64,000 nt of DNA from an uncultured Actinomycetota bacterium (GCA_963704075.1 CAVPGV010000010.1:80564-144563); one strand, 5' to 3'. Shown: positions 1,681 through 63,900, numbered from the stretch's first letter. The notes: generated by a model from the sequence alone, not told the origin. Translations and numbers: made by a program.

Positions 1681-3781
1681 CCTCCGCGTAGGTGCTTGCG
1701 CCGGATCATGTACGCCTGGAAGTCCTCCAGGCGGCCATCGGGCGCCTCATTGTGGATCCATTCTCCGTCAGGCTCCAGATCCCACGCCGAGGTACCCGGA
1801 TCGAAGGCCTTGTCGAGGATCTCACCCACGTAGGCGATTTGATCCGGGCCCTGCAACGACACGAGCGTTTCCACGCGTCGGTCCAAGGTTGCGGTGCATG
1901 AGGTCCGCAGAGCCGATCCACACCTCCGGATCCCCGCCGTTGAGGAACTCATACGCCCTGGAGTGTTCCAGGAAGCGGCCCAGGATGCTGCGGACCCGCA
2001 GGTTCTCGCTCATGCCGGGCACCTGCGGGCGGATCGCGCAGATCCCGCGGACCAGGACGTCCACCGGCACGCCTGCCATGGAGGCGCGGTACAGGGCGTC
2101 GATGACCTTCTCATCGACGATCGAGTTGCACTTGAACCGGACCCGGGCCGGCAGTCCCGCTTCGTGGTTGGCGATCTCCTTGTCGATGCGCTCGAGCAGC
2201 CCTTTGCGGATCGAGTGCGGAGCTACCAGCAGGCGGTGGTACTCGGTGTGCATCGAGTAGCCCGAGAGCTGGTTGAACAGGTTCGCGACGTCCTGGCCGA
2301 CCTGATCGTCGACGGTCAGCAAACCGAAGTCCTCGTAGAGGCGGGCGGTCTTCGGGTGGTAGTTCCCGGTGCCGATGTGGCAGTAGCGCCGGAGCCGCTC
2401 ACCGTCGTCGCGCACGACCATCGACAACTTGCAGTGGGTCTTCAGGCCGACCAGCCCGTAGACCACGTGCACACCGGCACGCTCGAGTTTTCGGGCCCAC
2501 TTGATGTTGGCGCTCTCGTCGAAACGGGCCTTGATCTCGACCAGGGCCAGAACCTGTTTGCCGGCCTCCGCCGCATCGATCAGGGCGTCGATGATCGGCG
2601 AGTCGCCCGAGGTCCGGTACAGCGTCTGCTTGATCGCCAGCACCTTCGGGTCAGCGGCCGCCTGCTCCAGGAAACGCTGCACACTGGTGGAGAACGAGTC
2701 GTACGGGTGGTGCAGCAGCACGTCGGACTGCCGCATCGCCTCCAGCACGTTGGGCGCGCTGGCACTCTCCTTGTTCTGCATCAACGCAGCGGTTGGTCTT
2801 CGGCACGAACGCCGGGTCGGACAGGTCCTCGCGGTTGAGCCCGACGAACGCCCACAGCCCGCGCAGGTCCAGCGGCCCGGGCAGCACGAACACCTCGTTG
2901 TCGGCGACTCCGAGTTCACGGATCAGCAGATCCAGCACGTGCTGGTCGATGGTCTGCTCAACCTCCAGACGGACCGGCGGGCCGAAACGACGTTTGCTCA
3001 GTTCCCGCTCGAGGGCTTTGAGCAGGTTCTCGGCGTCGTCCTCCTCGACTTCCAGATCCTCGTTGCGGGTCACCCGGAAGACGTGGTGCTGCAGCACGTC
3101 CATGCCGGGGAACAGCAGGTCGAGGTGCTCGGCGATGACATCCTCCAGCGGTACGAAGCGCGAGTTGCCCACCGCCAGGAATCGGTCCAGCGAGGGCGGC
3201 ACCTTGACCCGGGCGAACAACTCGGAGCCCGTCTGCGGATTGCCCACGACCACGGCGAGGTTCAGCGACAACCCCGAGATGTAGGGGAACGGATGTGCCG
3301 GGTCGACGGCCAAAGGGGTGAGCACCGGGTAGATCTTGTCCCGGAACAACGTCGCGAGTTTGCGCCGGTCCTCGTCGTCGAGTTCGGACCAGCGGACCAA
3401 CGTGATGCCCTCGGCGGCCAGCGCCGGCCGGACCTCGTCACTCCAACACTCGGCCTGTCGGCGCATGAGGTCATGGGCGTGCACCAGCACCGCGTCGTGG
3501 ACCTCGCGGGGGAGCAGCCCACTGGCCGCGCGCACGGCGATCCCCGCGGCGATGCGGCGCTTGAGTCCAGCCACCCGCACCATGAAGAACTCGTCGAGGT
3601 TGGAGGCGAAGATCGCCAGGAACTTGGCGCGTTCCAGCAGCGGCAGGTCCTCGTTCTCGGCGAGCTCCAGTACTCGCTGGTTGAAGGCCAGCCAGCTCAA
3701 CTCGCGATCGATGAACCGATGTTCTGGCAACTCGGGTGGATCGCCGACCCCGTCGGAGGTCTGGGCGGTGGCGCTGGTCAT
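1677..3781 (-). pseudogene. ppk: polyphosphate kinase 1 (PPK1), reading frame interrupted twice as sequenced
   Basis: Three minus-strand ORF pieces join into one PPK1. Piece 1: [45 protein letters not shown] (frame of ORF 2651..4693). Piece 2: [85 protein letters not shown] (ORF 1822..2919). Piece 3: [19 protein letters not shown] (ORF 1677..1952). The frame switches near 2790-2797 and 1884-1890. Each is repaired by removing one base, giving a product of about 700 aa. Confidence 0.85.
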
Positions 3782-7088: not shown

Positions 7089-7597
7089 TGGACCTCCCTG
7101 ACGAAGTCCTGCCGCTGTCCTGGCTGTTGGGCCACTGGGTCGGCGTCGGCACTGGCCATTACCCCACGATCGAGGACTTCCGCTTCGGCCAGGAACTCTC
7201 GTTCACTTGCGACGGTCGCCCCTTCATCGCGCTGAACTCCCGGTCGTGGATCCTCGATGACCAGGGCAACCGGGTCCGTCCCGGCGCCACGGAATCGGCG
7301 TTCTTCCGCCCCCGTCCCGACAACCAGTTCGAGGCCCTCTTCAGCCATCCCACCGGTTTTGCGGAGGTGTGGCACGGACGCGTGACCATCGCCGACATCC
7401 AGGACGCCCGCATCACGCGGGCGAGTCTGGAAATGACGACCGACACGGTCATGCGCACCGAGAGCGCCAAGGAGTACATCGGCGGCCAGCGGCTCTACGG
7501 CTTGGTGCCCGACGGCGACCTGGCATGGACGTTCGATATGAGTGCGATGGGCGAACCCTTGACCAATCACCTGGCCGCCAAACTCCAACGCGTGTGA
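7088..7597 (+). CDS. nitrobindin / FABP-like heme-binding beta-barrel protein (UPF0678)
   Basis: 169 aa. LPLSWLLGHWVGVGTGHYPTIEDFRFGQELSF..FFRPRPDNQFEALFSHPTGFAEVWHG is the signature of the Rv0813c/Rv2717c-type family. Confidence 0.8.
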   Translation: MDLPDEVLPLSWLLGHWVGVGTGHYPTIEDFRFGQELSFTCDGRPFIALNSRSWILDDQGNRVRPGATESAFFRPRPDNQFEALFSHPTGFAEVWHGRVTIADIQDARITRASLEMTTDTVMRTESAKEYIGGQRLYGLVPDGDLAWTFDMSAMGEPLTNHLAAKLQRV

Positions 7598-8070: not shown

Positions 8071-8246
8071 ATCGGGGAGAGTCTCAATGACCTGGCGGCC
8101 ACGATCTGATGCGTGAAGTGTGGTCTCAGCACTTGCTGGAGGTGGTTGCCCGACGACTGTTACCTCTACCTCACGGACGTTATTGAAACGGCACGACCAC
8201 GTAGCTGAAGGTCACGTAAGGGGAATGCTGCGTGTTTGCGCCGGGG
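8071..8246. repeat. local direct repeat, copy A1 (~176 bp)
   Basis: ATCGGGGAGAGTCT..CCTGGCGGCCACGATCTGATGC..GGAGGTGGTTGC.CGACGACTGTTACCTC.ACCTCACGG..CTGCGTGTTTG.GCCGGG recurs 403 bp downstream at 8474-8647. By eye, roughly four fifths of positions are identical. Confidence 0.85.
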
Positions 8247-8261: not shown

Positions 8262-8392
8262 TCATGCCGAGGCGTGAGAGTTGGGTACAGGCGTTGGAGA
8301 TCGGTACAGGCGTTGGAGATCCGCGGGCCGCGCAACTCCAACGGTTGTGCGTTTGTCCAACGTCTGTACCCAACTCCAACGCCTGCGCAGGC
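8262..8392. repeat. REP-like nested palindrome made of 19-bp CGTTGGA units, copy E1
   Basis: Left arm: GGTACAGGCGTTGGAGATC x2, plus a degenerate third unit. Centre: CCGCGGGCCGCG. Right arm: GCAACTCCAACGGTTGTGC, GTTTGTCCAACGTCTGTAC, CCAACTCCAACGCCTGCGC. Confidence 0.9.
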
Positions 8393-8473: not shown

Positions 8474-8647
8474 ATCGGGGAGAGTCTGAAGGGCCTGGCG
8501 GCCACGATCTGATGCACAAATGTGGCCTCAGCACTCGCGGAGGTGGTTGCTCGACGACTGTTACCTCGACCTCACGGGCGTGGATTGAATCTGCACGACC
8601 GCGTAACTCAAGGTCACAGGAGGGGACTTCTGCGTGTTTGAGCCGGG
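8474..8647. repeat. local direct repeat, copy A2
   Basis: Second copy of the A1 sequence. It ends about 14 nt into ORF 8634..8846 and carries a GGAGGGG Shine-Dalgarno-like box 9 nt before GTG 8634. Confidence 0.85.
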
Positions 8648-17259: not shown

Positions 17260-17396
17260 CCGCACAACAGCCGTTGGACTTACGCACAACCGTTGGACAA
17301 ACGCACAACCGTGAGGAAAACCGCCCGTTGGACTCGTCTGTACCGGACTCCAACGCCGGTGCCGACTCCCACGCCTGTACCCATCCCGACGCCTGC
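17260..17396. repeat. REP-like nested palindrome of CGTTGGA units, copy E2
   Basis: Forward units: CAACAGCCGTTGGACTTAC, GCACAACCGTTGGACAAAC, GCACAACCGTGAGGAAAAC (decayed), CGCCCGTTGGACTCGT. Reverse units: GACTCCAACGCCGGTGCC, GACTCCCACGCCTGTACC, CATCCCGACGCCTGCC (decayed). Confidence 0.85.
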
Positions 17397-28917: not shown

Positions 28918-29865
28918 ATGATCTCGCTGCAGGACGTCACCAAGCAGTACCCGGACGGCACCGTCGCTGTCCACGACCTCACGCTGGAGGTCGATGAGGG
29001 GGTGATCTGCGCACTCGTCGGACCGTCGGGGTGCGGCAAGACCACCACGATGCGGATGATCAACCGGTTGATCGAGCCCACGGGCGGCACGATCCAGGTG
29101 GCCGGTGAGGATGTGACGTCGTTGGACGTGCAGGAGTTGCGCCGACGCATCGGGTACGTCATCCAGAACTCGGGCTTGTTCCCCCACTACACCGTGCGCA
29201 AGAACGTGGGCACCGTATGTCGCTTGCTGGGATGGGACAAGCAGAAGATCGCGGCACGCGTCGACGAGATGCTGGAACTGGTCGACCTGGAGCCGGACAC
29301 GTTCGGCGACCGGTACCCCCACCAACTGTCGGGTGGCCAGAAGCAGCGGGTGGGGGTGGCCCGGGCGCTGGCCGCGGATCCCCCGGTGATGCTCATGGAC
29401 GAGCCTTTCGGCGCCGTAGACCCGATCGCGCGTGAGCGGCTCCAGGACGAGTTCCTGGCGTTGCATGCGCGCATGCGCAAGACCGTGGTCCTGGTGACTC
29501 ACGACATCGATGAAGCGGTGAAACTCGGGGACCGCATCGCGGTGCTCAAGCAGGGTGGGTATCTGGAGCAGTACGACCGGCCGGCGGCGGTGCTGGGGTT
29601 CCCCACCAGCGACTTCGTGGCCGATTTCGTGGGATCCGACCGGGCCATCAAACGCCTGCGGGTCAGCCCCATCCCGGTGTCCGCGTTGGGCGACGAGACC
29701 GTGGCGCCCGGCCCCGGCGTGATCGAGGTCGCGCAGGACGCCTCCATGTACGACCTGCTGGCCGCGGTGCTGCAAGCCGAATCCAGCCTGGCGCGTATCA
29801 CACCGGGCGGCCAGGCCGTGCGCGTCGGGGACATCGACCGCTTGATGGAGGCGTCGCGCCCGTAG
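28918..29865 (+). CDS. ABC transporter ATP-binding protein with C-terminal CBS-type region (OpuCA/OpuBA-like)
   Basis: Start at MISLQDV (28918). Walker A GPSGCGKTT, signature LSGGQKQRV, Walker B VMLMDEPF. Transcribed divergently from its permease genes. Confidence 0.85.
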   Translation: MISLQDVTKQYPDGTVAVHDLTLEVDEGVICALVGPSGCGKTTTMRMINRLIEPTGGTIQVAGEDVTSLDVQELRRRIGYVIQNSGLFPHYTVRKNVGTVCRLLGWDKQKIAARVDEMLELVDLEPDTFGDRYPHQLSGGQKQRVGVARALAADPPVMLMDEPFGAVDPIARERLQDEFLALHARMRKTVVLVTHDIDEAVKLGDRIAVLKQGGYLEQYDRPAAVLGFPTSDFVADFVGSDRAIKRLRVSPIPVSALGDETVAPGPGVIEVAQDASMYDLLAAVLQAESSLARITPGGQAVRVGDIDRLMEASRP

Positions 29866-30028
29866 GCGCAGGCTGACCGGTGGCGCAAGCTGACCGGTGG
29901 CCAAAGCCAGCCGTTGGAGTTGGGCACAACCGTTGGAGATACGCACGGGGGTTGGAGTTGCGCGGCCGTTGCAAGTCCAACGGTTGTACCTGAGTCCAAC
30001 GGCTGTGCAGAAGTCCAACGGTTGCGCG
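29866..30028. repeat. REP-like nested palindrome of CGTTGGA units, copy E3
   Basis: Starts right after the stop codon with two decayed units (GCGCAGGCTGACCGGTG, GCGCAAGCTGACCGGTG). Then forward units GCCAGCCGTTGGAGTTGG, GCACAACCGTTGGAGATAC, GCACGGGGGTTGGAGTTGC. Centre GCGGCCGTTGCAAG. Reverse units TCCAACGGTTGTACC, TCCAACGGCTGTGCAG, TCCAACGGTTGCGCGG. Confidence 0.9.
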
Positions 30029-30039
30029 GAAGCCGCCCG

Positions 30040-30324
30040 TCAGCTCTTCTCGTGCTCCCGAATGTAGGTCGCGTACCGCGCCACGAACAACGGCTCCATG
30101 TCGCCCACCTTGTCGTGACCGAACGCCTCCTTCGCCGCGGACATCAGCCCCAGCAGAGACCCGGAGATGTCGCCGAGGGATCCGCCTTCGTCCGAGACGT
30201 TCTCCAACGCCGGAGTGTGGGTCAGCAAGTCGTAGAAGAATCCGATGTCATGGCGCTTTTCGGCAAGTTCGAAAGCCCGATGGCGCAGTTCTTCGTACGG
30301 GAGATCCTCGAGGGCATCGGCCAT
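30040..30324 (-). CDS. hypothetical acidic protein (94 aa)
   Basis: ORF with clean coding appearance (MADALEDLPYEELRHRAFELAEKRHDIGFFYDLL..). It follows the DUF3180 gene after 9 nt. No family recognised. Confidence 0.5.
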   Translation of the reverse strand: MADALEDLPYEELRHRAFELAEKRHDIGFFYDLLTHTPALENVSDEGGSLGDISGSLLGLMSAAKEAFGHDKVGDMEPLFVARYATYIREHEKS

Positions 30325-30333
30325 GGACCGACT

Positions 30334-30834
30334 CTATCGGACCCTCGGATGTACCCAATCGGCTGCTGAGTCGGTGTCCGTGGTGCCGTCGTCATCATCG
30401 TCGCCATCGCCCTTGATACGGCAGATCCGCTCCAGCCACAACGCCGCCGCGACCATCAGCAGACCGGCCACGATCGCCGCGATGGATGCGAATCCGCGCT
30501 CCCGAGCGGCGAGGATGTACCACTGACCGGCGAACCACACGAGGAACCCGGTGTAGACGCCGGTCGCAATCGCACCTGTGCGGGAGGCGGCCATCGCCAG
30601 AGCAGCCGTGCGTGCGGCTACGAACGGGTCGACCGGGCCCTCACGGATGCGCTTGCGGATGCCCAGCGCCCAGAAGAACAACGCCAGGGCCAGAATCGCC
30701 AGGGTGGCGGGGGCGGTCCAGACGACGGGCACACTGCGCCCGGCGATGTCGTCCACGAGGTCGGCGAGCACCCAACCCGCCACGGCACTGACGACACCGA
30801 GGGTGATCAGCAGTCGGGCACTGGTTGGAGTCAC
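30334..30834 (-). CDS. DUF3180 membrane protein (conserved folK neighbour)
   Basis: 166 aa, four TM helices, acidic tail (GDGDDDDDG). Position downstream of folK matches the Rv3605c-type gene. 4-nt overlap with the folK stop. Confidence 0.65.
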   Translation of the reverse strand: MTPTSARLLITLGVVSAVAGWVLADLVDDIAGRSVPVVWTAPATLAILALALFFWALGIRKRIREGPVDPFVAARTAALAMAASRTGAIATGVYTGFLVWFAGQWYILAARERGFASIAAIVAGLLMVAAALWLERICRIKGDGDDDDDGTTDTDSAADWVHPRVR

Positions 30835-31328
30835 CGTTCCACTGTACGCAGCAACCGGCCGAGAGGTCGAACTCCTTCATCGGGCATCGCGTCGCGCACC
30901 GCGGCGACCGCTCGGCCGTCCGGGAGCACGAACTGCGGGTCGGCCTGCGCCCAGGGGATCATGACGAAGGCGCGCTCGGTCGCCCGCGGATGCGGCAACG
31001 TCAGGTCAGGGTCGTCACTGACGCGATCGCCGAAAGCCAGGACGTCGACGTCCAGGGTCCGCGGACCCCAGCGGACCTCGCGGGTGCGACCCTTGCCCCG
31101 TTCCGCGCGTTGTGCTGTGGACAGTACCTCCGCGGCGGAAGCGTTCGTCTCGACGATGACCACCGCGTTGTAGTACTCCGGTTGCTCCGGACCTCCCACG
31201 GGATCGGTCTCGTAGACGTCGGACAGTCCCACGATCTCGCCCAGGCCGGACAGCACGTCCACCGCGTGCTGGAGCGCCGCGACCCGGTCCCCGAGGTTCG
31301 CGCCCAGCGAGAGGGCCACCCGGGTCAT
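30831..31328 (-). CDS. folK: 2-amino-4-hydroxy-6-hydroxymethyldihydropteridine diphosphokinase
   Basis: 165 aa. LSLGANLGDR, YYNAVV, RTLDVDVLAFGD, LTLPHPRATERAFV. Confidence 0.9.
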   Translation of the reverse strand: MTRVALSLGANLGDRVAALQHAVDVLSGLGEIVGLSDVYETDPVGGPEQPEYYNAVVIVETNASAAEVLSTAQRAERGKGRTREVRWGPRTLDVDVLAFGDRVSDDPDLTLPHPRATERAFVMIPWAQADPQFVLPDGRAVAAVRDAMPDEGVRPLGRLLRTVER

Positions 31329-31380
31329 GGGCGCGAACTCAACGAAGCGGCACGCAGGTGGCGACCGAAAGGCAAGTGGC

Positions 31381-31734
31381 TCATCGCGTAATCCGAAGGG
31401 TCACGTCCTCGAAGATCTCCGTGACCGGCGCGAACGGCTTGTGTACGGTCACGGTCACCTGTTCGACCCCGGCGAACTGCTTGATCCGCTCGGCGATCCT
31501 CGCCGCGAGCGTCTCGATCAGTTGGAACGCGGGTCCCGTGATGATCCGGACCACCTCGGTACTCACGGCCCCGTAGTCCACCGTGGCCACGAGGTCGTCA
31601 TCGGCTGCTGCGGCTCGCGTGTCCACTGCCATCTCGACGTCCACGACGAACGGCTGCCCGATCTCCTGCTCGAAAGCCAGAACTCCGTGTTTGCCCCGGG
31701 CCCGGATCCCCAGAATGCTGATGGTGTCGCTCAT
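31381..31734 (-). CDS. folB: dihydroneopterin aldolase
   Basis: Start at MSDTISILG (31734), overlapping the folP stop. GVLAFEQEIGQPFVVDVEM, DYGAV. Confidence 0.85.
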   Translation of the reverse strand: MSDTISILGIRARGKHGVLAFEQEIGQPFVVDVEMAVDTRAAAADDDLVATVDYGAVSTEVVRIITGPAFQLIETLAARIAERIKQFAGVEQVTVTVHKPFAPVTEIFEDVTLRITR

Positions 31735-32537
31735 GTGGCCTCCTGCCATGCGGCTGCGACCCTCACCGCGTCGCAACTCCCCAGAACATCATGGACCCGC
31801 ACACCCCAGACCCCGCGCGTGGCGGCCAGCGCACTGACCGCCGCCGTCGCGACATCGCGCTGCTCCTCCGGTCGTGCAGCTGAATCCGTCGCGAGCAGGG
31901 CACCGAGGAACCGCTTGCGAGAGGCGCCGATCAGCACCCGCGGACCGATACCCACCAGGCGCGGCAGACCGGCGAGCAACTCCCAGTTGTGGTGGGCCTG
32001 CTTGGCGAAGCCCAGACCCGGATCGAGGATCACCCGGTCCGCGGCGATGCCGGCCTCGACGCACGCGAGGAGCCGTTGTTCCAAGGCCGCGGAAACCTCC
32101 GTGGCAACGTCGGTGTAATGGGTGAAGGAGTCCATCTGGGTTGATTGCGCTCGCCAGTGCATGGCCACGTAGTCGACCTCGAGTTCAGCGACAGCGGCCA
32201 TCATCGTAGGGTCCGCGAGGCCTCCGCTCACATCGTTGACCATCCGTGCACCTGCGGCGACGCACGCACGCGCGACCGGGGCCCGCATGGTGTCGATGCT
32301 CACCTCCACACCCTCGGACGCCAACGCCGCGACGACCGGCACGACCCTCTCGAGCTCCGTCTCCAGCGAAACCCGCTCGGCGCCGGGACGGGTGGATTCG
32401 CCACCCACGTCCACCCAGCGCGCTCCGTCGGCGACCATGCCGATCCCGGCTTCGACAGCCGCGGCCGGGCTCCCGTAGCGACCGCCGTCGCTGAAGGAAT
32501 CGGGGGTGACGTTGAGCACCCCCATCACGATGGTCAC
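31731..32537 (-). CDS. folP: dihydropteroate synthase
   Basis: Start at GTG 32537, overlapping the folE stop (GTGA). [53 protein letters not shown]. Confidence 0.9.
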
Positions 32538-33136
32538 CGACCGAGGATAAGTGACATCGCTTCCGCCCGGGTGGCCGAATCGCGCAACTGCCCGCGCACG
32601 GCACTGGTGGTGGTGGTCGATCCCGGCTTGCGGATTCCGCGCATGGCCATGCACAAGTGTTCACACTCGATGACCACGATCACCCCCCGGGGCTTCAGGA
32701 TGCCCTGCAGCGCATCGGCGATCTGGGTGGTCAGGCGCTCCTGGACCTGCGGTCGTTTGGCATACACGTCGACCAATCGCGCCAGTTTGCTCAAGCCGGT
32801 GATTCGGCCGTCGTCGGCGGGGATGTAGCCGACATGCGCTTTGCCGAAGAACGGGACAAGGTGGTGTTCGCAGTGGCTCCACAGTTCGATGTCCCGCACG
32901 AGCACGAGTTCGTCGTGGGCCAAGTCGAAGGTGGTGGTGAGAACCTCCTCGGGCCCTTGGCGCATCCCGGCGAACACTTCGGCGTACATCCGCGCGACCC
33001 GGGCCGGCGTGTCCTTGAGTCCGTCGCGGCCGGGGTCCTCACCCACGGCGTAGAGCAACTCACGGATCGCCGCTTCCGCGCGCTCGGAGTCGAACTGCGG
33101 AATCTCGCGGTCGGGCAGACTGATCGAATCGGTCAT
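32534..33136 (-). CDS. folE: GTP cyclohydrolase I
   Basis: Start at MTDSISL (33136). [35 protein letters not shown]. Confidence 0.9.
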
Positions 33137-33294
33137 TCGTCCAGTTTGGGGCAATTCCGCGGGTTCCGCCCGATGGGGTGCTTCAGGCCTGCGCGCCACC
33201 TCAATGGCAGTCGCACCAGAGTCCACCATCGTCAGCAGTCCGAGACCGCCGGCGACCCTGTGACGGGCGACGGTGACCCTCGGGATTCCTCGAC

Positions 33295-35262
33295 TCAGAC
33301 GGGCGGGTCAGGAATCGGCAGGCCCGCACCGGATCCGGATCCGGATCCGTTGCCGTTCGAGCCGGCCGGGTAATCCACCGGACCACGCTCGTGCGGACGA
33401 CGGCGAGCCGAACCGGTCCAGGCCGGCCGAGCCTGCCGCAGCCGGAGTTCGGCGAAAATGCCGGCCACCTGCTCCTTGTCCAGAGTCTCCTTCTCCAGCA
33501 GTTCCACGACCAGCCTGTCCAGGATGTCGCGGTTGTCGAACAGGATCTCGTAGGCCTCTTGATGCGCCTGTTCGATCAAGGAGCGAACCTCCTCGTCGAT
33601 GGCCGCCGCGATCTCCTCGGAGTAGTCGCGCACGTGGCCCATGTCACGGCCCAGGAACACCTCGTTGTTCTCCTGGCCGTAGCGGATGGCTCCGAGCCGC
33701 TCGGTCATGCCGTACTGGGTGACCATCGCACGTGCCACGGCGGTCGCCTTCTCGATGTCGTTGGAGGCACCGGTGGTCGGGTCGTGGAAGACCATCTCCT
33801 CAGCCGCGCGACCGCCCAGCATGTACGACAACTGGTCGAGCATCTCGTTGCGGGTGGTCGAGTACTTCTCCTCGTCCGGAAGGACCATCGTGTAGCCCAA
33901 GGCCCTCCCGCGGGGCAGGATCGTGATCTTGTGCACCGGGTCGCTGTTGGGCAATGCGGCGGCGACCAGCGCATGCCCGCCCTCGTGGTAGGCCGTGATC
34001 CGCTTCTCCGCCTCGTTCATCAGCCGGGAACGCTTCTGCGGCCCGGCAACAACGCGGTCGATCGCCTCGTCCACGGCCTCCGGGGTGATCAGGGTCTGGT
34101 TCTCGCGCGCGGTGAGCAGAGCGGCCTCGTTCAGCACGTTGGCCAGGTCCGCTCCCGTGAAACCGGGCGTCCTTCGGGCGATGTTCATCAGGTCGATACC
34201 GGGCGCTATCGGTTTGCCTTTGATGTGGACCTTGAGGATTTCCTCGCGGCCCTTGAGGTCCGGGCGCTCGACGGCGATCTGGCGGTCGAACCGGCCGGGG
34301 CGCAGAAGAGCCGGGTCGAGGATGTCCGGGCGGTTGGTGGCTGCGATCAGGATGACACCACCTGAGACGTCGAAGCCGTCCATCTCGACCAGCAGCTGGT
34401 TCAGGGTCTGTTCGCGCTCATCGTGCCCACCGCCGAGTCCCGCCCCGCGGTGACGGCCGACCGCATCGATCTCGTCGACGAACACGATGGCCGGCGCGTT
34501 GGTCTTGGCCTGCTCGAAGAGGTCGCGCACCCGGGAAGCTCCCACCCCGACGAACATCTCGACGAAGTCGGATCCGGAGATCGAGTAGAACGGCACGCCG
34601 GCCTCCCCGGCCACGGCCCGGGCGAGCAGCGTCTTGCCGGTTCCAGGTGGCCCGTAGAGCAGGACACCTTTGGGGATCTTCGCCCCCACAGCCTGGAACT
34701 TGGCCGGTTGTGCCAGGAATTCCTTGATCTCCTCGAGTTCCTCTTTGGCCTCGTCGGCACCGGCCACATCGGCGAACGTGGTCTGTGGCATGTCCTTGGA
34801 GATGATCTTGGCCTTCGACTTGCCGAAGTTCATGATCCGGGATCCGCCGCCCTGCATCTGCGACATGAAGAAGAACAGCAGACCGACGATGAGGATGACC
34901 GGAAGCAGGGAGACCAGCAATGTCACCAGGATGTTGTCACGGGGCACGTCCACCGTGTAGCCATCGGGCAGTTGCCCGGCGTCCTTCTTGGCCTGCAACT
35001 GGTTCTGCAGTTCGAGACCCTGCCCGGTGATGTACTCCGACCGGACCTCGGTGCCGTCCTGCAAGGTGAGCTCGATGCGCTGCTCACGATCGACCAGGGT
35101 TGCCTGCTTCACCTGGTTCTGCTCTATGTAGTCGACCGCCTGCCAGGTGTCGACGTCCTTGGTTCCGCCCACGCCGGACACCAGGCTGCTGCCGAGCAGC
35201 ACCAACAGCACTGCCAGCAGAATCCACAACAACGGCCCACGCGCCAAGCGCTTCATGTTCAT
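33295..35262 (-). CDS. ftsH: ATP-dependent zinc metalloprotease FtsH
   Basis: 655 aa, intact. Two TM helices, Walker [12 protein letters not shown], Walker B VFVDEIDA, zinc site HEGGHAL. Confidence 0.95.
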
Positions 35263-35477
35263 CTCCTTGAGGATAGAACGGTTGAACCCGGTGCGTTCAT
35301 TCCCATGGGGCTAAGGGGGTGCCTGAGGTTGCGCCGGTCCCCCAGCCCGGTCGTTGCTTCGGCCTGCTGATTCCGGGTCCAGCCGGGGTCCCCGACGAGC
35401 GTCATACCAGGGGCGGCGGCTCGCGGAATCGGGGAGCCCAACAGACGCGCGTTCGACTCGCCCGGCGGCTCGCAAGC

Positions 35478-35602
35478 CGGCAGGCGTTGGAGTTGGGTAC
35501 AGACGTTGGACAACCGCACAGGCGTTGGAGATACGCGGCCCGTGGATCTCTCACCGATGTACCGGACTCCAACGGATGTGCACAACTCCAACGTCTGTGC
35601 GC
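35478..35602. repeat. REP-like nested palindrome of CGTTGGA units, copy E4
   Basis: Forward units GGCAGGCGTTGGAGTTGG, GTACAGACGTTGGACAACC, GCACAGGCGTTGGAGATAC. Centre GCGGCCCGTGG. Then a decayed unit (TCTCACCGATGTACC), followed by CTCCAACGGATGTGCAC and CTCCAACGTCTGTGCGC. Confidence 0.9.
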
Positions 35603-35723
35603 GAGGACACCGGGGTTGTTCCACCCGCCCGACCGGACGATCACGGCCCAACGGTCCACGGTCCTTCCGGGAGCCCACAGGACGTCCCTTCGACTCCCGG
35701 ATTCTGCCGCGCCCGGTGGCTCG

Positions 35724-36284
35724 TTACGCGCGACCCTCGTACACCGACGGCGAGAGTTTTGCGACGCAGTCGAGGTTCCGGTACTTCTCGGCATAATCGA
35801 GGCCGTATCCGACCACGAAGTCGTTGGGGATGTCGAAGCCGAGGTATCTCACGTCCACTTCGGTGCGCATAGCGTCCGGCTTGCGCAGCAGTGTCAGCAC
35901 CTCGACGCTCGCGGCACCCCGCGAACGGAGGTTGCGCAATAGCCAGGAGAGGGTCAGACCGGAATCGAGGATGTCCTCGACGATGAGCACGTGCCGCCCG
36001 CTCAGATCGGCATCGAGGTCCTTGAGGATGCGCACGACGCCGGAACTCTTGGTGCTCGATCCGTATGAGCTGACCGCCATCCAGTCCATCTCCACCGGGA
36101 TCGTCAGCGCCCGGATGAAGTCGGCCACCACCATCACGGCACCCTTGAGCACGCCGACGATGAGCAGATCCTTGTCGCGGTAGTCCGCGTCCACCTGGGC
36201 GGCCAGCTGGCCGAGTCGGGCCTGTAGTTCCTCAGCGCTGATCAGTACCGCTTCCAGGTCTCCATTGACATCCTCAACGTGCAC
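35724..36284 (-). CDS. hpt: hypoxanthine phosphoribosyltransferase
   Basis: Start taken at GTG 36284. [32 protein letters not shown] (PRPP motif), [13 protein letters not shown]. Confidence 0.9.
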
Positions 36285-37332
36285 TGCGCCTCCCGGATGC
36301 TCGATGCAGCACAAGACTGCCAGACTCCCGCCGCGCGCGGACGCCGCCCGGCAAATCAATGGGTCCTTGGCCGTGCCACGCGGTCACCAGCGCGTAGACC
36401 GACAGCAGGTGTTCGCGCGTGATCGCGGCACCCGGACACCCGGCTTCCAAGGCCATCCGCCGAATCACCCGCACACCCACTGCCGCCGGAATCCGTTCCA
36501 GAGACTGGATCGGCGCGGCGACCTGCGCGGGGCCCGATTCCGCTTCGATGCAATCCGCCCAGGCATCGAGGGCGGCATTGTCCTCGCCCAACGAGGCCGC
36601 CGACCGGGCCAGGCCGAGCACGACATGATCCCCCAGGTCCTCGACCAAAGCCGGCAGGCTGTGGTGGCGGACCCGCGATCGGGCGTAGCGAGCGTCGGTG
36701 TTGTGAGAATCCTCATGAGCGGAGAGCCCCGCCTGCGTGCAGGCCGCGCGGACCGTCTCGCGTCGCAGTCCCAGCAGCGGCCGCCGGAGATCACCGTCGA
36801 CCGGCGACATCCCGGCGAGGCTGCGAGCGCCGGATCCACGGGCCAATCGCAGCAACACCGTCTCGGCCTGGTCATCGAGAGTGTGTCCGAGCAGCAAGGA
36901 CGTCGCGTCGAGTTCGCGGGCGACTTGGCGCATTGCGCGATACCGCCCATCGCGGGCTGCCGCCTCCGGACCGCCTCGCGAGCCCACCTCGGCGCGTCGC
37001 GTCACCACGGGGTGCAGACCCAGATCGCGACATTGCGCGGCTGCGGTGGAAGCGACGTCGGCGGAACCGACCTGCAAACCATGGTCGACCACGACTGCAC
37101 CCACGTGACGGCCGCTGATCGCAGCACCTGCCGCCAGCGCCAGCGAGTCAGCGCCCCCGGAACACGCGACGAGGACCAGCTGGCTGGGGTCGGAATCGGC
37201 GAGATTGGCGATCACCGCGCGGCGGACCGCCAACAACGCGGGCCCCGCTGCGCGTTCATTCACCGCCGATCCCCTGACGATGACATGCACTGGGTACCAC
37301 GGTGCTTCCGGCGTCAGACCCGGGCCAGCCAC
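36274..37332 (-). CDS. tilS: tRNA(Ile)-lysidine synthase
   Basis: [15 protein letters not shown]-loop, [23 protein letters not shown]. The start may be a later GTG (about 37287). Confidence 0.85.
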
Positions 37333-43478: not shown

Positions 43479-44783
43479 TCAGGGGGGTCCGCGGGTGTGG
43501 GTGATGACGGGGATGGTGTGGGTGTCCATGGTGATGGTGTAGCGGCCGTGGTGCAGGTCGTGATGACATCGCGAACATAAGAGGGCCAGATTTGACAGGT
43601 CGGTTCGGCCGCCGTCTTTCCAGTGCAGGATGTGGTGGGCGTGGCAGTGTCGGGGGGAGCGTCCGCAGCGGATGCAGCCGCGGTCGCGGGCGATCAGCGC
43701 CGCCCACTGCGCGGCGGACGCCCGGCGTTGCCGGCGGCCGAGCGCCAGGGGGATGAAGGTGCCGGTGCGTTTGATCCCGAAGATCACCGTGCACACCGCG
43801 GCACAGGCCAGCAGGTCGAAGCTGCCGGCGCCCAGCGGGGTGCCGTCGACCAGGGTCGCCTGGTCACCGTCGGGCAGGTGTTCGAGGTCGACGAGGATGC
43901 TGACGGCGGATACTCCGAGCGGACGGGTGTTGGCTGCGGCGGCTGTTGCCATGTCGGCCAGGGCGTCGGCGCGGCGCTGGGCCGGGGTGGTCGTGTCGTG
44001 GGTGTCTGGGGGTCGGGTGAACGAGGCCAGGGTGTCGGCCAGGATCGCCCCGTCCACCTCATCCAGCAGCCCGGTGATCGCCCACATCCCGTTCGCCCGG
44101 GCGGACAGTCGCAGGGAGCGTTTGGCGCGTTGCTGGTCGATGGTCAGGTCCAGGTGGGCCGGGTTGTCGGCGTCCGCGGCGACCTGCAACACCCGTCGCA
44201 CCTCCGAGGCGTCGGTGAGTTTCGCCAGGCCGACGGCGGCGGCTTGTTTGGCGGTGAAGTCGTCGATGCCCGGGGCGTGGGCCAGGATCTGATGCACATG
44301 CAACCCCGAAATGGCGCCGTCGGCCCAGGCGTCTTTCACGCTCGGCAGGTCCTGCAACTGCTTGGCGGTGTTCACCATCCCCGACCCCACGGCGACCGGA
44401 CTGTTGGTGGCGATCGCCACCAGCGACCCGGTGGTCCCGGCGCCCAGCACCCGGGAATCCCCCGCGGCATCCGCCGCGCCGGCCAGACCGGTCAGATACG
44501 CCTCCAGCCGGTTACGCAGCCTCGCGGTGACCGCCAGGGCCGCGGCGCGTTCCTCCGCACACAGGTGCTCCGGATCCGGCAGACCATCAATGTCGTCGTT
44601 GATCTGGTCGAACCCGGCCGGCGCCACCGTCGGCAAGCACGCCCGGATCCGGGCCCGGCGGTGCGCCGCGTGCGACACATCGAAAAACGACGAAGAAGAA
44701 GAACCAGAAGCCACAGCACACCCCCGATCGACACACGACTTGAATGTCGAATCGGAAGGGCCCGATGCCCACCGCGACGTCAC
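43479..44783 (-). CDS. DUF222 + HNH endonuclease protein (REP13E12-type)
   Basis: 434 aa. C-terminal HNH nuclease (RDRGCIRCGRSPRHCHAHHILHWKDGGRTDLSNLALLCSRCHHDLHHG) after a long helical DUF222-type region. The start is uncertain (GTG 44783 or an internal GTG). Confidence 0.8.
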   Translation of the reverse strand: MTSRWASGPSDSTFKSCVDRGCAVASGSSSSSFFDVSHAAHRRARIRACLPTVAPAGFDQINDDIDGLPDPEHLCAEERAAALAVTARLRNRLEAYLTGLAGAADAAGDSRVLGAGTTGSLVAIATNSPVAVGSGMVNTAKQLQDLPSVKDAWADGAISGLHVHQILAHAPGIDDFTAKQAAAVGLAKLTDASEVRRVLQVAADADNPAHLDLTIDQQRAKRSLRLSARANGMWAITGLLDEVDGAILADTLASFTRPPDTHDTTTPAQRRADALADMATAAAANTRPLGVSAVSILVDLEHLPDGDQATLVDGTPLGAGSFDLLACAAVCTVIFGIKRTGTFIPLALGRRQRRASAAQWAALIARDRGCIRCGRSPRHCHAHHILHWKDGGRTDLSNLALLCSRCHHDLHHGRYTITMDTHTIPVITHTRGPP

Positions 44784-44816
44784 GAGCTGACAACCACGAA
44801 CTACCAGTTACTGACC

Positions 44817-45033
44817 ACCGTAGACCGGACCTCTGACATTTCCCCGGCCACTTACTCACACCGTAAACCGGACCCCTGACATTTCCCCGAGCTACTGATC
44901 CATACCGTGAACCGGACCTCTGACATTTCCTGAGCTACCTGTTTCACACCGTAAACCCAGGGTTTGACATTTCTCCGATCACTTGTCCACACCATGAACG
45001 GACCCTCTGACAAATCCAGCGGGATCCAGCCGA
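44817..45033. repeat. tandem repeat array, five units of 43-44 bp (plus a decayed unit upstream)
   Basis: Units start at 44817, 44860, 44904, 44948 and 44991. Conserved part: ACCGTRAACCGGACCYCTGACATTTCC. A variable part of about 16 nt follows. A decayed unit overlaps the HNH gene start (about 44771-44816). Confidence 0.9.
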
Positions 45034-45175: not shown

Positions 45176-45739
45176 TCAGCGCCTGGTCTCGTATCTGGTC
45201 AGGAGCACGCCGTCGGGAAACGTCCGGGTCTCCACCAACCTAAGGTTCACCCAGTTGTCCAGGGCCGTGAAGAACGGGGTACCGCCGCCCACCAGGACGG
45301 GATGAGTGACGATCGCATACTCGTCAATCAGCCCGGCCCGCATGGCCGCCGCGGCAAGGGTGGCACCGCCGACGTCCATGCAACCGTCATCCTGAGTCTT
45401 GAGCCGGGTGATCTCGGTGACAGCGTCGCCGGACACCAGGCGGGCGTTACAGTCGACCACGCTGGTCGTCGAGGAGAACACGACCTTCGGCATGTCCCGC
45501 CAGCGGCGGGCGAACTCGATCTGCGCCGGTGTGGCGCCGGGCAACTGGTCAGCAGTCGGCCAGTAGGAGCTCATCGTCTCCCACAATCTGCGCCCGTACA
45601 ACGCCAGACCCGTCGCCTTCACCCGGTCTGACCACCACTGGAACAGTTCATCGCTCGGCACGCTCCAGCTGAGGTCGTCACCGGGCGCGGCGATGTAGCC
45701 GTCCAGGCTCAGGTTCATGGCAAAGGTCAGTCTCCGCAC
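45176..45739 (-). CDS. dihydrofolate reductase family protein (RibD C-terminal domain type)
   Basis: Start taken at GTG 45739 (VRRLTFAMNLSLDGYIAAPGDDLSW). VVFSSTT, GGATLAAAAMRAGLIDEYAIVTHPVLVGGGTPFF. Confidence 0.75.
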   Translation of the reverse strand: MRRLTFAMNLSLDGYIAAPGDDLSWSVPSDELFQWWSDRVKATGLALYGRRLWETMSSYWPTADQLPGATPAQIEFARRWRDMPKVVFSSTTSVVDCNARLVSGDAVTEITRLKTQDDGCMDVGGATLAAAAMRAGLIDEYAIVTHPVLVGGGTPFFTALDNWVNLRLVETRTFPDGVLLTRYETRR

Positions 45740-45858
45740 AGCGTCAGCCTCTCGTGAGTCGGCACTCGGCGTACAGACCAACACGGCGCGGAAGACTCCT
45801 CGCGCAGACCCCACCGAGGACCCGTGGACCACCCGCCCCAGCGGACGCTGCACGCCGA

Positions 45859-51252: not shown

Positions 51253-51417
51253 CACCAGGCGTCGGCGTTGTGTGCAGGCGTCGGCGTGGTGTGCAGGCGT
51301 TGGAGTTGTGTGCAGGCGTTGGAGATCGGCACAGAAGTTGGAGAACCACGGCCCGCGCTTCTCCAACGGATGTGCGGGAGTCCAACGGATGCGCGTAACT
51401 CCAACGCCTGTGGCGCA
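51253..51417. repeat. REP-like nested palindrome of CGTTGGA units, copy E5
   Basis: Five forward units: two decayed (CAGGCGTCGGCGTTGTG, TGCAGGCGTCGGCGTGGTG), then TGCAGGCGTTGGAGTTGTG, TGCAGGCGTTGGAGATCG, GCACAGAAGTTGGAGAACC. Centre ACGGCCCGCGC. Three reverse units: TCTCCAACGGATGTGCG, GTCCAACGGATGCGCG, CTCCAACGCCTGTGGC. Confidence 0.9.
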
Positions 51418-51432
51418 CCAGCAGCGACAACA

Positions 51433-51795
51433 TTAGTCCGTCAAGTGATACGCGAAGTGGCTGTCGAGAGCCAGGAGGAAAGCTCCTTGGACCACGACCG
51501 CCGCCCCATCGGCGCGGAAACGTTCCGAGCGCCAGGCCCACAGCCCCAATGAGATGTAGCCGACGTCAGCCACGCAATTCGCCAGCAGGACCTTGCGCAG
51601 CCGATCCGTGTCAGGAGCCGGCCGGCTGAGACCGAATGCCGCGATGGCCGCATCGACGGCGCCCCATGCGGCCGTCTGTCGCCCGAAACTGCGCACTGCC
51701 GGGGTGGGACCGGCGCCCCACAGCGCACCTCCCGCGAGCATGGACCCTGCGGACCATGCGCCCAGGGTATTCAGCAACTGCCGGTGGGTGGCCAT
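51433..51795 (-). CDS. hypothetical membrane protein
   Basis: Start at MATHRQLL (51795), overlapping the upstream stop (ATGA). About four TM helices. No family recognised. Confidence 0.5.
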   Translation of the reverse strand: MATHRQLLNTLGAWSAGSMLAGGALWGAGPTPAVRSFGRQTAAWGAVDAAIAAFGLSRPAPDTDRLRKVLLANCVADVGYISLGLWAWRSERFRADGAAVVVQGAFLLALDSHFAYHLTD

Positions 51796-52019
51796 CAATC
51801 CTCCATCACGTAAGGGCAGTGACGGCACCCGTTGCCGCAGCACGTCCCGCGCTTGACATGAAACGCCGCGGTCAGCACGAACAGTCCCGTGTCGGGATCG
51901 GAGTACCCGGCGTCTCCGGCCTCCACGGCCCTGGCATGCGCTGCGAGGATTTCAGCCCGTCGCGGATGGTCGGACGCCAACCGATCCGGGTGCGGCGTCG
52001 TCCATGCAGCGCGGGTCAT
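51795..52019 (-). CDS. small Cys-rich protein, DUF5522-like
   Basis: Start at MTRAAWTT (52019). 74 aa ending FHVKRGTCCGNGCRHCPYVMED. Confidence 0.5.
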   Translation of the reverse strand: MTRAAWTTPHPDRLASDHPRRAEILAAHARAVEAGDAGYSDPDTGLFVLTAAFHVKRGTCCGNGCRHCPYVMED

Positions 52020-62055: not shown

Positions 62056-63900
62056 ATGGCCCTGCGCAGCGACCTGCGGAACGTAGCAATCATCGCCCAC
62101 GTCGATCACGGCAAGACGACCCTGGTCGATGCCATGTTGTGGCAGTCGGGCGCCTTCCGAGAGAACGCCGACGTCGCCGACCGGGTCATGGACTCCATGG
62201 ACCTCGAACGCGAGAAGGGCATCACGATCCTCGCGAAGCAGACAGCGGTGCTGCATGGCGGCGTGACGATCAACATCATCGACACCCCCGGCCACGCCGA
62301 CTTCGGCGGTGAGGTGGAACGCGGACTCGAGATGGTCGACGGCGTACTGCTGCTGGTCGACGCGTCGGAAGGGCCGCTCCCCCAGACCCGGTTCGTGCTG
62401 CGCAAGGCGCTGGCCAAACAACTGCCGGTGGTTCTGGTGGTGAACAAGGTCGACCGGTCCGATGCCCGGATCGCCGAGGTGGTCGACGAGGTCTACGAAT
62501 TGTTCTTCGACCTCGACGCCACAGAGGATCAGATCGACTTCCCGGTCGTCTACGCAAGTGCCCGGGCCGGTCGGGCGAGCCTCGAGCGCCCACAGAACGC
62601 GTCGATGCCCGACTCACCGGACCTCGAACCGCTCTTCGAGACGCTGGTCTCCACCGTTCCGGCTCCGAGCTACGACGAGGACGCCCCTCTGCAGGCGCAC
62701 GTCACGAACCTGGATGCGTCTGCCTACTTGGGCCGCTTGGCGGTGTGCCGCATCCACGCCGGAACCATCCGCAAGGGCCAACAGGTCACGTGGTGCCGCG
62801 CCGACGGGACACAGACCATTGCGAAGGTCAGCGACCTGCTCATGACCGACGCCTTGGAGCGCAAGCCCGTCGACCAAGCGGGGCCCGGCGACATCATCGC
62901 GGTAGCCGGGATTCCGGAGATCACGATCGGTGAGACCCTGGCCGATCCGAACGACCCCCGGCCCCTACCGGTGATCACCGTGGACGAGCCGAGCATTTCG
63001 GTGACCATCGGCACCAACACCTCGCCCCTGGCCGGCGGGCAGGGCAGCAAGATGACCGCCCGACTGATCAAGAACCGGCTGGACTCCGAGTTGATCGGCA
63101 ACGTCTCACTGCGGGTCGCGGACACCGACCGCCCCGACGCATGGGAGGTGCAGGGTCGCGGCGAGCTGCAGCTGGCCGTGCTCGTGGAGATGATGCGGCG
63201 CGAGGGTTTCGAGTTGACCGTCGGCAAGCCACTGGTCGTCACCAAGGAGATCGACGGCACTCTGAATGAACCGATGGAGAACGTCACCATCGACATCCCG
63301 GAGGACTACGTCGGGGTCATCTCACAGTTGATGGGGCTTCGACGCGGACGCATGGAGGACATGACCAACCACGGGACCGGCTGGGTGCGCATGGAGTACC
63401 GAGTGCCCGCCCGAGCGCTCATCGGCTTCCGCACGGAGTTCCTCACCGAGACCCGCGGGACCGGCCTGATGCACCACGTCTTCGGCGGATACGAGCCGTG
63501 GCACGGCGACTTGCGCACCCGCCCGAGCGGGTCGTTGGTCGCCGACCGCCGCGGTGCGGTCACCAGCTACGCATGTTTCAACCTGCAGGAACGCGGGACC
63601 CTGTTCGTCGAACCCGGCGCCGAGGTGTACGAAGGCATGATCGTGGGGGAGAACGCCCGGGCCGACGACATGGACGTCAACCCGACGAAGGAGAAGAAGC
63701 TCACCAACGTGCGGTCCTCGACCGGTGAAGAACTCGAACGTCTGATCCCCGCCAGGCGACTGTCGCTGGAGCAGGCATTGGAGTTCTGCCGGGAGGACGA
63801 GTGCGTCGAGGTCACTCCGCACATGGTGCGTTTGCGGAAGGTCGAGCTGAACGCGGCCCTGCGCGGTCGGGCGACGGCACGGCGCAAGGCGCGGGGCTGA
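62056..63900 (+). CDS. typA: translational GTPase TypA/BipA
   Basis: 614 aa, intact. [27 protein letters not shown], and EF-G-like domains throughout. Confidence 0.95.

Follow-up and report, generated by a model that had tools for sequence, protein, structure and literature searches.

An undescribed, lineage-restricted family of modular intergenic palindromic repeats in Micrococcales

Dispersed palindromic repeats are well characterised mainly in the Proteobacteria, and the REP, BIME and REPIN elements of those bacteria are the nearest known systems to the repeats described here (PMC3337134, PMC3116915). Like them, our elements are short, non-coding and predominantly extragenic, are present in hundreds of copies, have inverted halves that could pair as a ~100-nt hairpin, occur in tandem clusters, are inherited vertically, show no target duplications and are enriched at the 3′ ends of genes. 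They differ in that each arm is a tandem array of a non-palindromic 19-bp module instead of one palindromic REP, the variable positions lose pairing, no RAYT was found in 1.54 Mb, and the host is an actinobacterium.

The BOX elements of Streptococcus pneumoniae contain three module types, A, B and C, with the 45-bp boxB repeated between A and C. They are likewise modular and intergenic, with a variable number of internal tandem modules, partly complementary ends and no identified enzyme, but our repeats have only one type of 19-bp module, from which the two arms are built as mirror images. Direct protein-binding repeats of 19–22 bp that are inverted at the other end, a layout like the present one, are also found in Tn7, Mu, Tn5090/Tn402 (the ends of which carry arrayed 19-bp transposase-binding repeats) and eukaryotic foldback elements. 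Transposons of the Tn7/Mu/Tn402 type, however, make 5-bp target duplications and carry or need a DDE transposase, and neither the duplication nor such a partner is seen here. Our literature search found the REPIN/RAYT work and no described actinobacterial family like this one; the family is undescribed and lineage-restricted, and it belongs to the known class of bacterial intergenic palindromic repeats.

The window, by which we mean the whole 64,000-nucleotide stretch that was analysed (G+C ~67%), comes from an uncultured Actinomycetota bacterium and contains the conserved actinobacterial tilS-hpt-ftsH-folE-folP-folB-folK block and coaX. A first-pass annotation had described five loci with a shared architecture of CGTTGGA-type units in inverted arrays, and this architecture is real. 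The window contains 34 exact CGTTGGA motifs, compared to a mean of 9.3 and a maximum of 16 in dinucleotide shuffles, and 24 of the 34 lie in the five loci, which occupy 721 bp or 1.1% of the window; inside the loci the distance from core to core is exactly 19 bp, and plus strand cores precede minus strand cores. With up to one mismatch the loci hold 28 cores, where roughly 25–30 had been counted, and the centre of each is GC-rich as described (CGCGGGCCGCG or CACGGCCCGCG). The ten exact motifs outside the loci are isolated and at chance level, and the coding-DNA examples at 7584 and 29120 are, as had been said, genuine single cores. Arrays of period 19 are also picked up by Tandem Repeats Finder at four of the loci, the exception being 35478-35602. 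Clusters of one-mismatch cores at 31155-31274 and 63692-63792 were set aside as chance occurrences in coding DNA without a 19-bp period. All five loci are intergenic, as claimed, between genes that are supported by Pfam, and the claimed proximity to stop codons holds for three of them (26 nt at locus 2, 1 nt and 12 nt at locus 3, and 16 nt at locus 5).

Locus 1 (8266..8388; none of the five elements is assigned a strand) is a canonical copy with three left and three right modules (dG −86.7, z −10). Its left cores are an outer variant, CGTGAGAG, at 8273 and CGTTGGAG at 8292 and 8311, its centre is CCGCGGGCCGCGC, and its right cores are at 8337, 8356 and 8375; a Fur-family gene (stop 8022) and a GcvT/YgfZ-like gene (start 8843) flank it. 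Locus 2 (17260..17396), just downstream of the coaX stop (17422) and upstream of the start of a GNAT gene (17167), is degenerate, with left cores at 17272, 17291 and 17326, a CGTGAGG variant at 17310 and a decayed right arm (TCCAACG at 17349, TCCCACG at 17367 and CCCGACG at 17385). Locus 3 (29867..30027) fills the spacer between two convergent stops (29865/30040), beginning just past one and ending just before the other. Its two outer modules, each of 17 bp, are degenerate (29867-29907), and they are followed by left cores at 29912, 29931 and 29950, the centre, and right cores at 29976, 29995 and 30014. Locus 4 (35477..35601), between the hpt stop (35724) and the ftsH start (35262), has left cores at 35485, 35504 and 35523 and right cores at 35568 and 35587, and its inner right module has the variant core TCTCTCACC. 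Locus 5 (51253..51417) lies downstream of the stop of a DUF6992 gene (51433..51843, minus strand), with a radical-SAM gene on its downstream side. Its two outer modules, with CGTCGGC at 51260 and 51279, are degenerate, and its left cores (51298, 51317 and 51336) are separated by the centre CCACGGCCCGCGC from right cores at 51362, 51381 and 51400. Degenerate outer modules of the same elements account both for the 17-bp tandem repeat at 29865-29907 and for the CGTCGGC units at 51260-51285.

We also note two other repeats in the window. Two direct copies of a ~175-bp repeat, 85% identical, lie one on each side of locus 1 (copy A, 8071..8245, and copy B, 8474..8647, both on the plus strand). It has conserved blocks (TGTTACCTCGACCTCACG... 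and GGGGACTGCTGCGTGTTTG) and no Rfam match, and its relatives adjoin elements in other genomes (L157, L081, L166, L125, L021, L095 and L079); possible roles are a small RNA, a promoter/leader or a linker module within a larger composite repeat. In the spacer between the minus-strand genes 43479..44783 and 45176..45853, a 44-bp unit is repeated in tandem ~4.5 times (44816-45012; consensus CACCGTAAACCGGACCTCTGACATTTCCCCGAGCTACTGATTCA), and a related array is present in the JADKAV01 MAG introduced below (L003, 1095-1211).

Alignment of 59 non-redundant copies from the window and related genomes refines the 19-bp CGTTGGA unit of the first-pass annotation: the module becomes GYRC-NNN-CGTTGGAG-NNNN (19 bp), with an 8-bp core and a GYRC block that is conserved too. 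Information content is near maximal in the core and GYRC and near zero in the NNN triplet, and a single 19-bp unit has no internal inverted repeat beyond the 4-mer GTAC. The canonical element has three left modules, a 13-nt GC-rich centre (CCACGGGCCGTGC) and three inverted right modules; element length is ~110–165 bp overall, and each arm has 2–5 recognisable head-to-tail modules. In the same alignment the ends of the element are defined and the module variants are ordered by position, the outer left module often having CGTGAGAG instead of CGTTGGAG, and the inner modules ending in ATC on one side and in TTGC on the other. The centre has the same orientation relative to the CGTGAGAG-type end in 24 of the 26 informative copies. 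Because the module variants are position-specific and the orientation of the centre is fixed (24 versus 2), the unit that has been copied is the whole element and not the 19-mer.

Each locus had been said to fold into one long hairpin. This is correct for four loci, which form a long imperfect hairpin (dG −66 to −99 kcal/mol, z −5 to −10), and incorrect for the degenerate locus 2 (z ~−1). Comparison of copies shows that such pairing is not what is maintained. In a set of 41 copies the triplets that are hairpin partners are fully complementary in 0/41 and 1/41 cases, and their identity is 0.26 versus 0.37 in shuffles. Among 56 copies less than 88% identical to each other, pairing is ~1.0 in the cores, ~0.9 in GYRC, 0.18–0.39 in the triplets and 0.12–0.68 in the tails, and the triplet and tail values are mostly below expectation (z down to −5). 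RNAalifold of 48 diverse copies finds 0 compensatory pairs (covariation term +0.04), with 12 invariant core pairs kept. Since the variable positions never covary and are less complementary than chance would give, it is the phased motif array that evolution conserves and not the base pairing between arms, and the arms seem to avoid extended complementarity. Neighbouring modules within one arm have identical triplets in 12/41 and 11/41 copies (~2.8 expected), which is a signature of slippage or conversion within the arm. The (C/G)GTTGGA core and the 19-bp period also recur, with different spacers, in Actinomyces and in the L053/L173 variant (see below).

To define the distribution of the family we scanned one genome per species, from 185,579 GTDB species, with a strict pattern of two plus two exact cores. 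It matched 52 loci, in records that carry five names. Forty-four of the 52 are in the MAG ‘Micrococcales bacterium Mari_18-Q3-R65-66_BATAC.348’ (JADKAV01), where there are at least 58 strict matches; five are in Actinomyces glycerinitolerans and A. succiniciruminis, three on one contig of an ‘Eiseniibacteriota’ MAG and one on a short contig of an ‘Ilumatobacteraceae’ MAG. A relaxed pattern matched at least 120 loci in metagenomes, most of them, among the matches listed, of the window type, and 0 in viral contigs (IMG/VR). A search for copies outside the window had been proposed as a check on the family, and these species-genome and metagenome loci supply them; the accompanying description of the element as very abundant applies within a narrow clade only and not elsewhere, given five matching names among so many species genomes. 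The window is ~89–90% identical to the syntenic JADKAV01 contig and therefore comes from a sister species of that MAG.

The contig of the ‘Candidatus Eiseniibacteriota’ MAG (CALOCN010000018.1; L022, L038 and L052) carries window-type elements, and its loci L038 and L022 are syntenic with the JADKAV01 loci L006 and L041, with 81–97% identity. Because of this synteny, it is probably a Micrococcales contig that was binned into the wrong MAG. The 2.3-kb Ilumatobacteraceae contig (L025) also carries a window-type element.

Two relatives of the window family have a (C/G)GTTGGA(C/G) core, a 19-bp period and a similar layout around a short centre, but have other spacers and another centre. The variant GGTTGGAG (L053 and L173) shows the same core and period in layouts from 2+2 to 4+2. 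‘Family B’, which is Actinomyces-like, has the core GTTGGACCAC and a 19-bp period in an element of ~215–265 bp with extra conserved flank modules, and we assign to it L068, L072, L082, L103-L106, L113, L124, L139, L140, L145, L149, L153, L155, L156, L160 and L171, as well as L009, L013, L014, L026 and L043. Its core can be written (C/G)GTTGGACC(AC), and its metagenome copies have 3+3 modules around the centre GTATTTCGTGAACCAGG and two conserved flank modules, relative to which the centre is found in both orientations; the spacer ‘cassettes’ GCGTGC, ATGTTC and AAATGC are permuted between positions. In rumen Actinomyces isolates the arm spacers lack any complementarity and layouts reach 7+3, and copy number in the isolate genomes is low (1–4 strict matches). 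A third group, ‘family C’, consists of AGTTGGAG hairpins with a 6/13-bp period on contigs of GC 0.5–0.64 and was set aside as probably unrelated. This repeat (L069, L075-L077, L085, L088, L096, L097, L099, L111, L120 and others) has a short AT-rich loop and is abundant in lower-GC metagenome contigs, and it was picked up only because it shares a hexamer with the window family.

Syntenic hpt-ftsH regions, obtained through FtsH homologues, are informative about the fate of individual copies. In L058, whose FtsH is 99% identical, the orthologous locus 4 copy has three mutated cores and deletions of 7 and 41 bp, and the locus 3 copy is shorter by exactly 38 bp, which is two modules. In L053 (FtsH 96%) the hpt-ftsH spacer contains only a 2+2 GGTTGGAG variant, and lineages with FtsH identities of 91–93% and 82% lack the element throughout the corresponding ~20 kb; in the repeat-free lineages the spacers at the locus 3 site are 9–24 nt. 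Between near-identical flanks in the MAG and metagenome contigs, element length differs by 18–19 bp, or about one module, and a tandem duplication of element plus linker is polymorphic (for example, 191 bp between 100% identical flanks). One element (L023, ~2090-3170 of JADKAV010000025.1) has a 1,087-bp IS30-like (rve) insertion in its centre. Thus copies, once in place, are inherited vertically, and their later change is by gain or loss of whole modules (slippage), tandem duplication of element and linker, IS insertion and decay. The IS in L023 is degenerate and frameshifted, and the uninterrupted element is present in metagenome contigs with 100% identical flanks (L087 and L163); by analogy with REPs, which are targets of some IS elements, the palindromic repeats here may be an IS target.

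The copies leave no target-site duplication: no excess of 3–9-bp direct repeats was found at any of 16×16 boundary offsets in 41 copies. Nor did DNA from near-identical strains reveal a clean polymorphism for insertion. A single 379-nt metatranscriptome contig (run X21, from a related strain) joins 29866 to 30028, skipping exactly the 161 nt of locus 3 with no microhomology. As this is one contig from an RNA library, and the joint is absent from the eight DNA runs checked, it is either a rare empty allele or the result of reverse transcriptase skipping a transcribed hairpin; several of the eight runs contain variant elements from related strains, the limits of which fall exactly at 29866 and 30028. 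In the one orthologous pair inspected between species, locus 1 and L023, the cores are kept and the flanks are unalignable, a pattern that host selection in situ or gene conversion could explain as well as mobility. Rates by position class in orthologous pairs, an analysis with few clean pairs that is confounded by the tandem arrays, hint at faster change in triplets (15.7%) than in flanks (4.5%) in the 90–97% identity bin of only six pairs. We also note that short-read contigs from metagenomes containing this organism break at or inside the elements, with depth up several-fold there (29300-36500, DNA and RNA runs), and that assemblies of this lineage are fragmented because of this.

Searches for a known identity or a partner protein returned no candidate. 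Rfam gave 0 matches over the whole window at the gathering threshold, and at an E-value threshold gave only generic miRNA-precursor hairpin models (15–37 bits against the 74–168 needed); blastn against plasmids and phages gave no match, and so the view that this is no named family is upheld. Integron attC cores (GTTRRRY), Chi-like sites, DNA-uptake sequences and the known operator motifs of actinobacteria were rejected on sequence grounds, and cores are not over-represented outside the arrays. The link to a RAYT-type transposase put forward by the first-pass annotation gained no support: the units have no palindromic core, and a crude six-frame regular-expression search for HUH/Y1 transposase motifs found no credible gene in 1.54 Mb around ~250 copies. 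No autonomous IS or transposon that shares ends with the element was found in the element-bearing loci, plasmids, phages or viral contigs, and the only IS seen, of the IS30-like/rve type, interrupts a copy and has ends not shared with it. Genes at multi-copy clusters are of housekeeping type by Pfam (gltD-like, pyruvate kinase, ABC transporter, SDR, AidB-like and DUF2505), and the neighbours of Actinomyces copies are ordinary (Fic/HTH, NUDIX, beta-lactamase-fold and LacI genes, also by Pfam). Apparent ‘solo arms’ were considered as the mark of an autonomous element and rejected, one being the insertion in L023 and the others (L027/L115) being complete elements whose cores are variant and which lie on either side of a CrtY-like gene. 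In L027 (5378-6853; L115 is the same region reversed) this gene encodes a 377-aa FAD-binding, CrtY/lycopene-cyclase-like protein, and the two elements that bracket it are in the same orientation, 1,339 bp apart.

Could the elements be bidirectional terminators or mRNA 3′-end stabilisers, in which the RNA hairpin is the function and host selection keeps the copies? Their genomic context is consistent with this idea. By a crude GC3-based gene caller applied to the loci that carry elements, 43/124 convergent, 44/289 tandem (co-directional) and 12/128 divergent spacers are occupied, which is 1.46, 0.56 and 0.41 copies per kb of spacer, respectively, and the 3.6-fold higher density in convergent than in divergent spacers bears out the preference for gene 3′ ends noted earlier. 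The nearest facing stop codon is at a median distance of 84 nt, with 28 of 110 copies at 30 nt or less, and three of the window copies are 1–26 nt from stops. Strong hairpins are predicted at four of the five loci, and copies may be transcribed, as low-coverage contigs of metatranscriptome library X24, in which carry-over DNA is possible, match the element with other flanks. Yet the 12 occupied divergent spacers are on the promoter side of genes, tandem multi-copies are common, and orientation in co-directional contexts is unbiased (12 same, 10 anti) despite one strand folding 10–22 kcal/mol better than the other. The 48 copies without compensatory changes and the avoidance of pairing at variable positions do not fit a conserved RNA structure, the near-strain copy in L058 has lost cores, and relatives have spacers of 9–24 nt at sites that are occupied in the window. 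No T-run follows the stem at any of the five copies; actinobacterial terminators can lack one, so this absence is still compatible with termination. With no covariation, orientation bias or T-run, with promoter-side copies and with empty sites in sister lineages, the case for termination as the primary function is weakened, and we regard it as unlikely.

Mobility of a known kind fares less well. In the REPIN/RAYT system a single-copy HUH tyrosine transposase moves a REP doublet in the form of single-stranded hairpin DNA, and the doublet shares with our elements the inverted arrangement, the ~100-nt hairpin, the extragenic location, the lack of target duplication, vertical inheritance and tandem clusters (PMC3337134). 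REPIN spacers keep their pairing (PMC3337134), however, while the variable parts here lose it, and the units lack an imperfect palindromic core of their own; on these two points the family falls outside the REPs and REPINs. RAYTs are also typically flanked by REPINs, and the crude motif search found no HUH/Y-motif ORF in the 1.54 Mb that carry our elements. We consider this system a very unlikely source. A foldback-type MITE derived from a DDE transposon with arrayed transposase-binding end repeats (the Tn7/Mu/Tn402 class) would show arrays of ~19-bp sites that are direct at one end and inverted at the opposite one, together with defined ends and a module variant distinctive of the terminus, all of which are seen. 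We nonetheless judge it highly improbable: the 41 copies show no target-site duplication of 3–9 bp at any offset, which places the family outside the DDE-type MITEs, the termini are not TG...CA, no full-length partner and no plasmid or phage match were found, and every split copy found comes down to a degenerate arm or the insertion of an unrelated IS. Another reading is an array that does not move, is bound by a nucleoid-associated or regulatory protein of the host, and has multiplied through local duplication and recombination; it agrees with the conservation of sequence over structure, the strict 19-bp phasing, the core common to Actinomyces elements with different spacers, and the locus 1 orthologous site, where cores are kept between species and flanks diverge. 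It is quite unlikely in turn, since occupation of more than 100 unlinked spacers needs a copying mechanism; near-strain copies decay, sister lineages are entirely without the family, and isolated cores elsewhere are not above chance.

The explanation that we favour, with middling confidence, is that these are non-autonomous REP/BIME-like repeats whose modules are putative protein recognition sites and which are tolerated at gene 3′ ends. The first-pass annotation had offered a protein-binding array among its readings, and as a reading of the sequence it is reasonable. On this view a protein acting in trans, for DNA binding or recombination, would recognise the modules and would have generated, and perhaps still move, the copies; entry into many spacers would date back to the ancestor of a narrow Micrococcales clade. 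The lack of complementarity in triplets and tails may leave the 100-bp palindrome imperfect enough to be tolerated, and copies would persist mainly downstream of genes because insertion there does the least harm. Where transcribed, the imperfect hairpin would probably be a two-way barrier to transcription or to exonucleases, as a side effect and not the cause of the spread. We infer the existence of the protein, the route to new sites and the effects on transcripts.

A bolder form of the same idea is that the modules are phased putative sites of an actinobacterial protein that reads (C/G)GTTGGA(G/C) and both spreads and uses the arrays; candidates would be a single-strand or site-specific recombinase of a new kind, or a nucleoid or partition-type protein, common to Micrococcales and Actinomyces. 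We hold this reading only tentatively, giving some small weight to a new repeat-protein partnership because the arms are modular, the motif and not the structure is conserved, and the core and period are shared with a distant family in Actinomyces.

The family shows an unusual mode of conservation, in which motif and phase are kept and pairing is avoided, and its microevolution by module slippage, tandem duplication and IS targeting is clear. The repeats serve as markers of a narrow Micrococcales clade from wastewater and sediment, and they have helped to expose a probably misbinned MAG contig. If the bolder reading is true, they would represent a partnership like that of REPIN and RAYT, in which the enzyme is another one and the palindrome is modular and deliberately mismatched, and a cognate protein, if it exists, would widen the known range of partnerships between bacterial repeats and enzymes.
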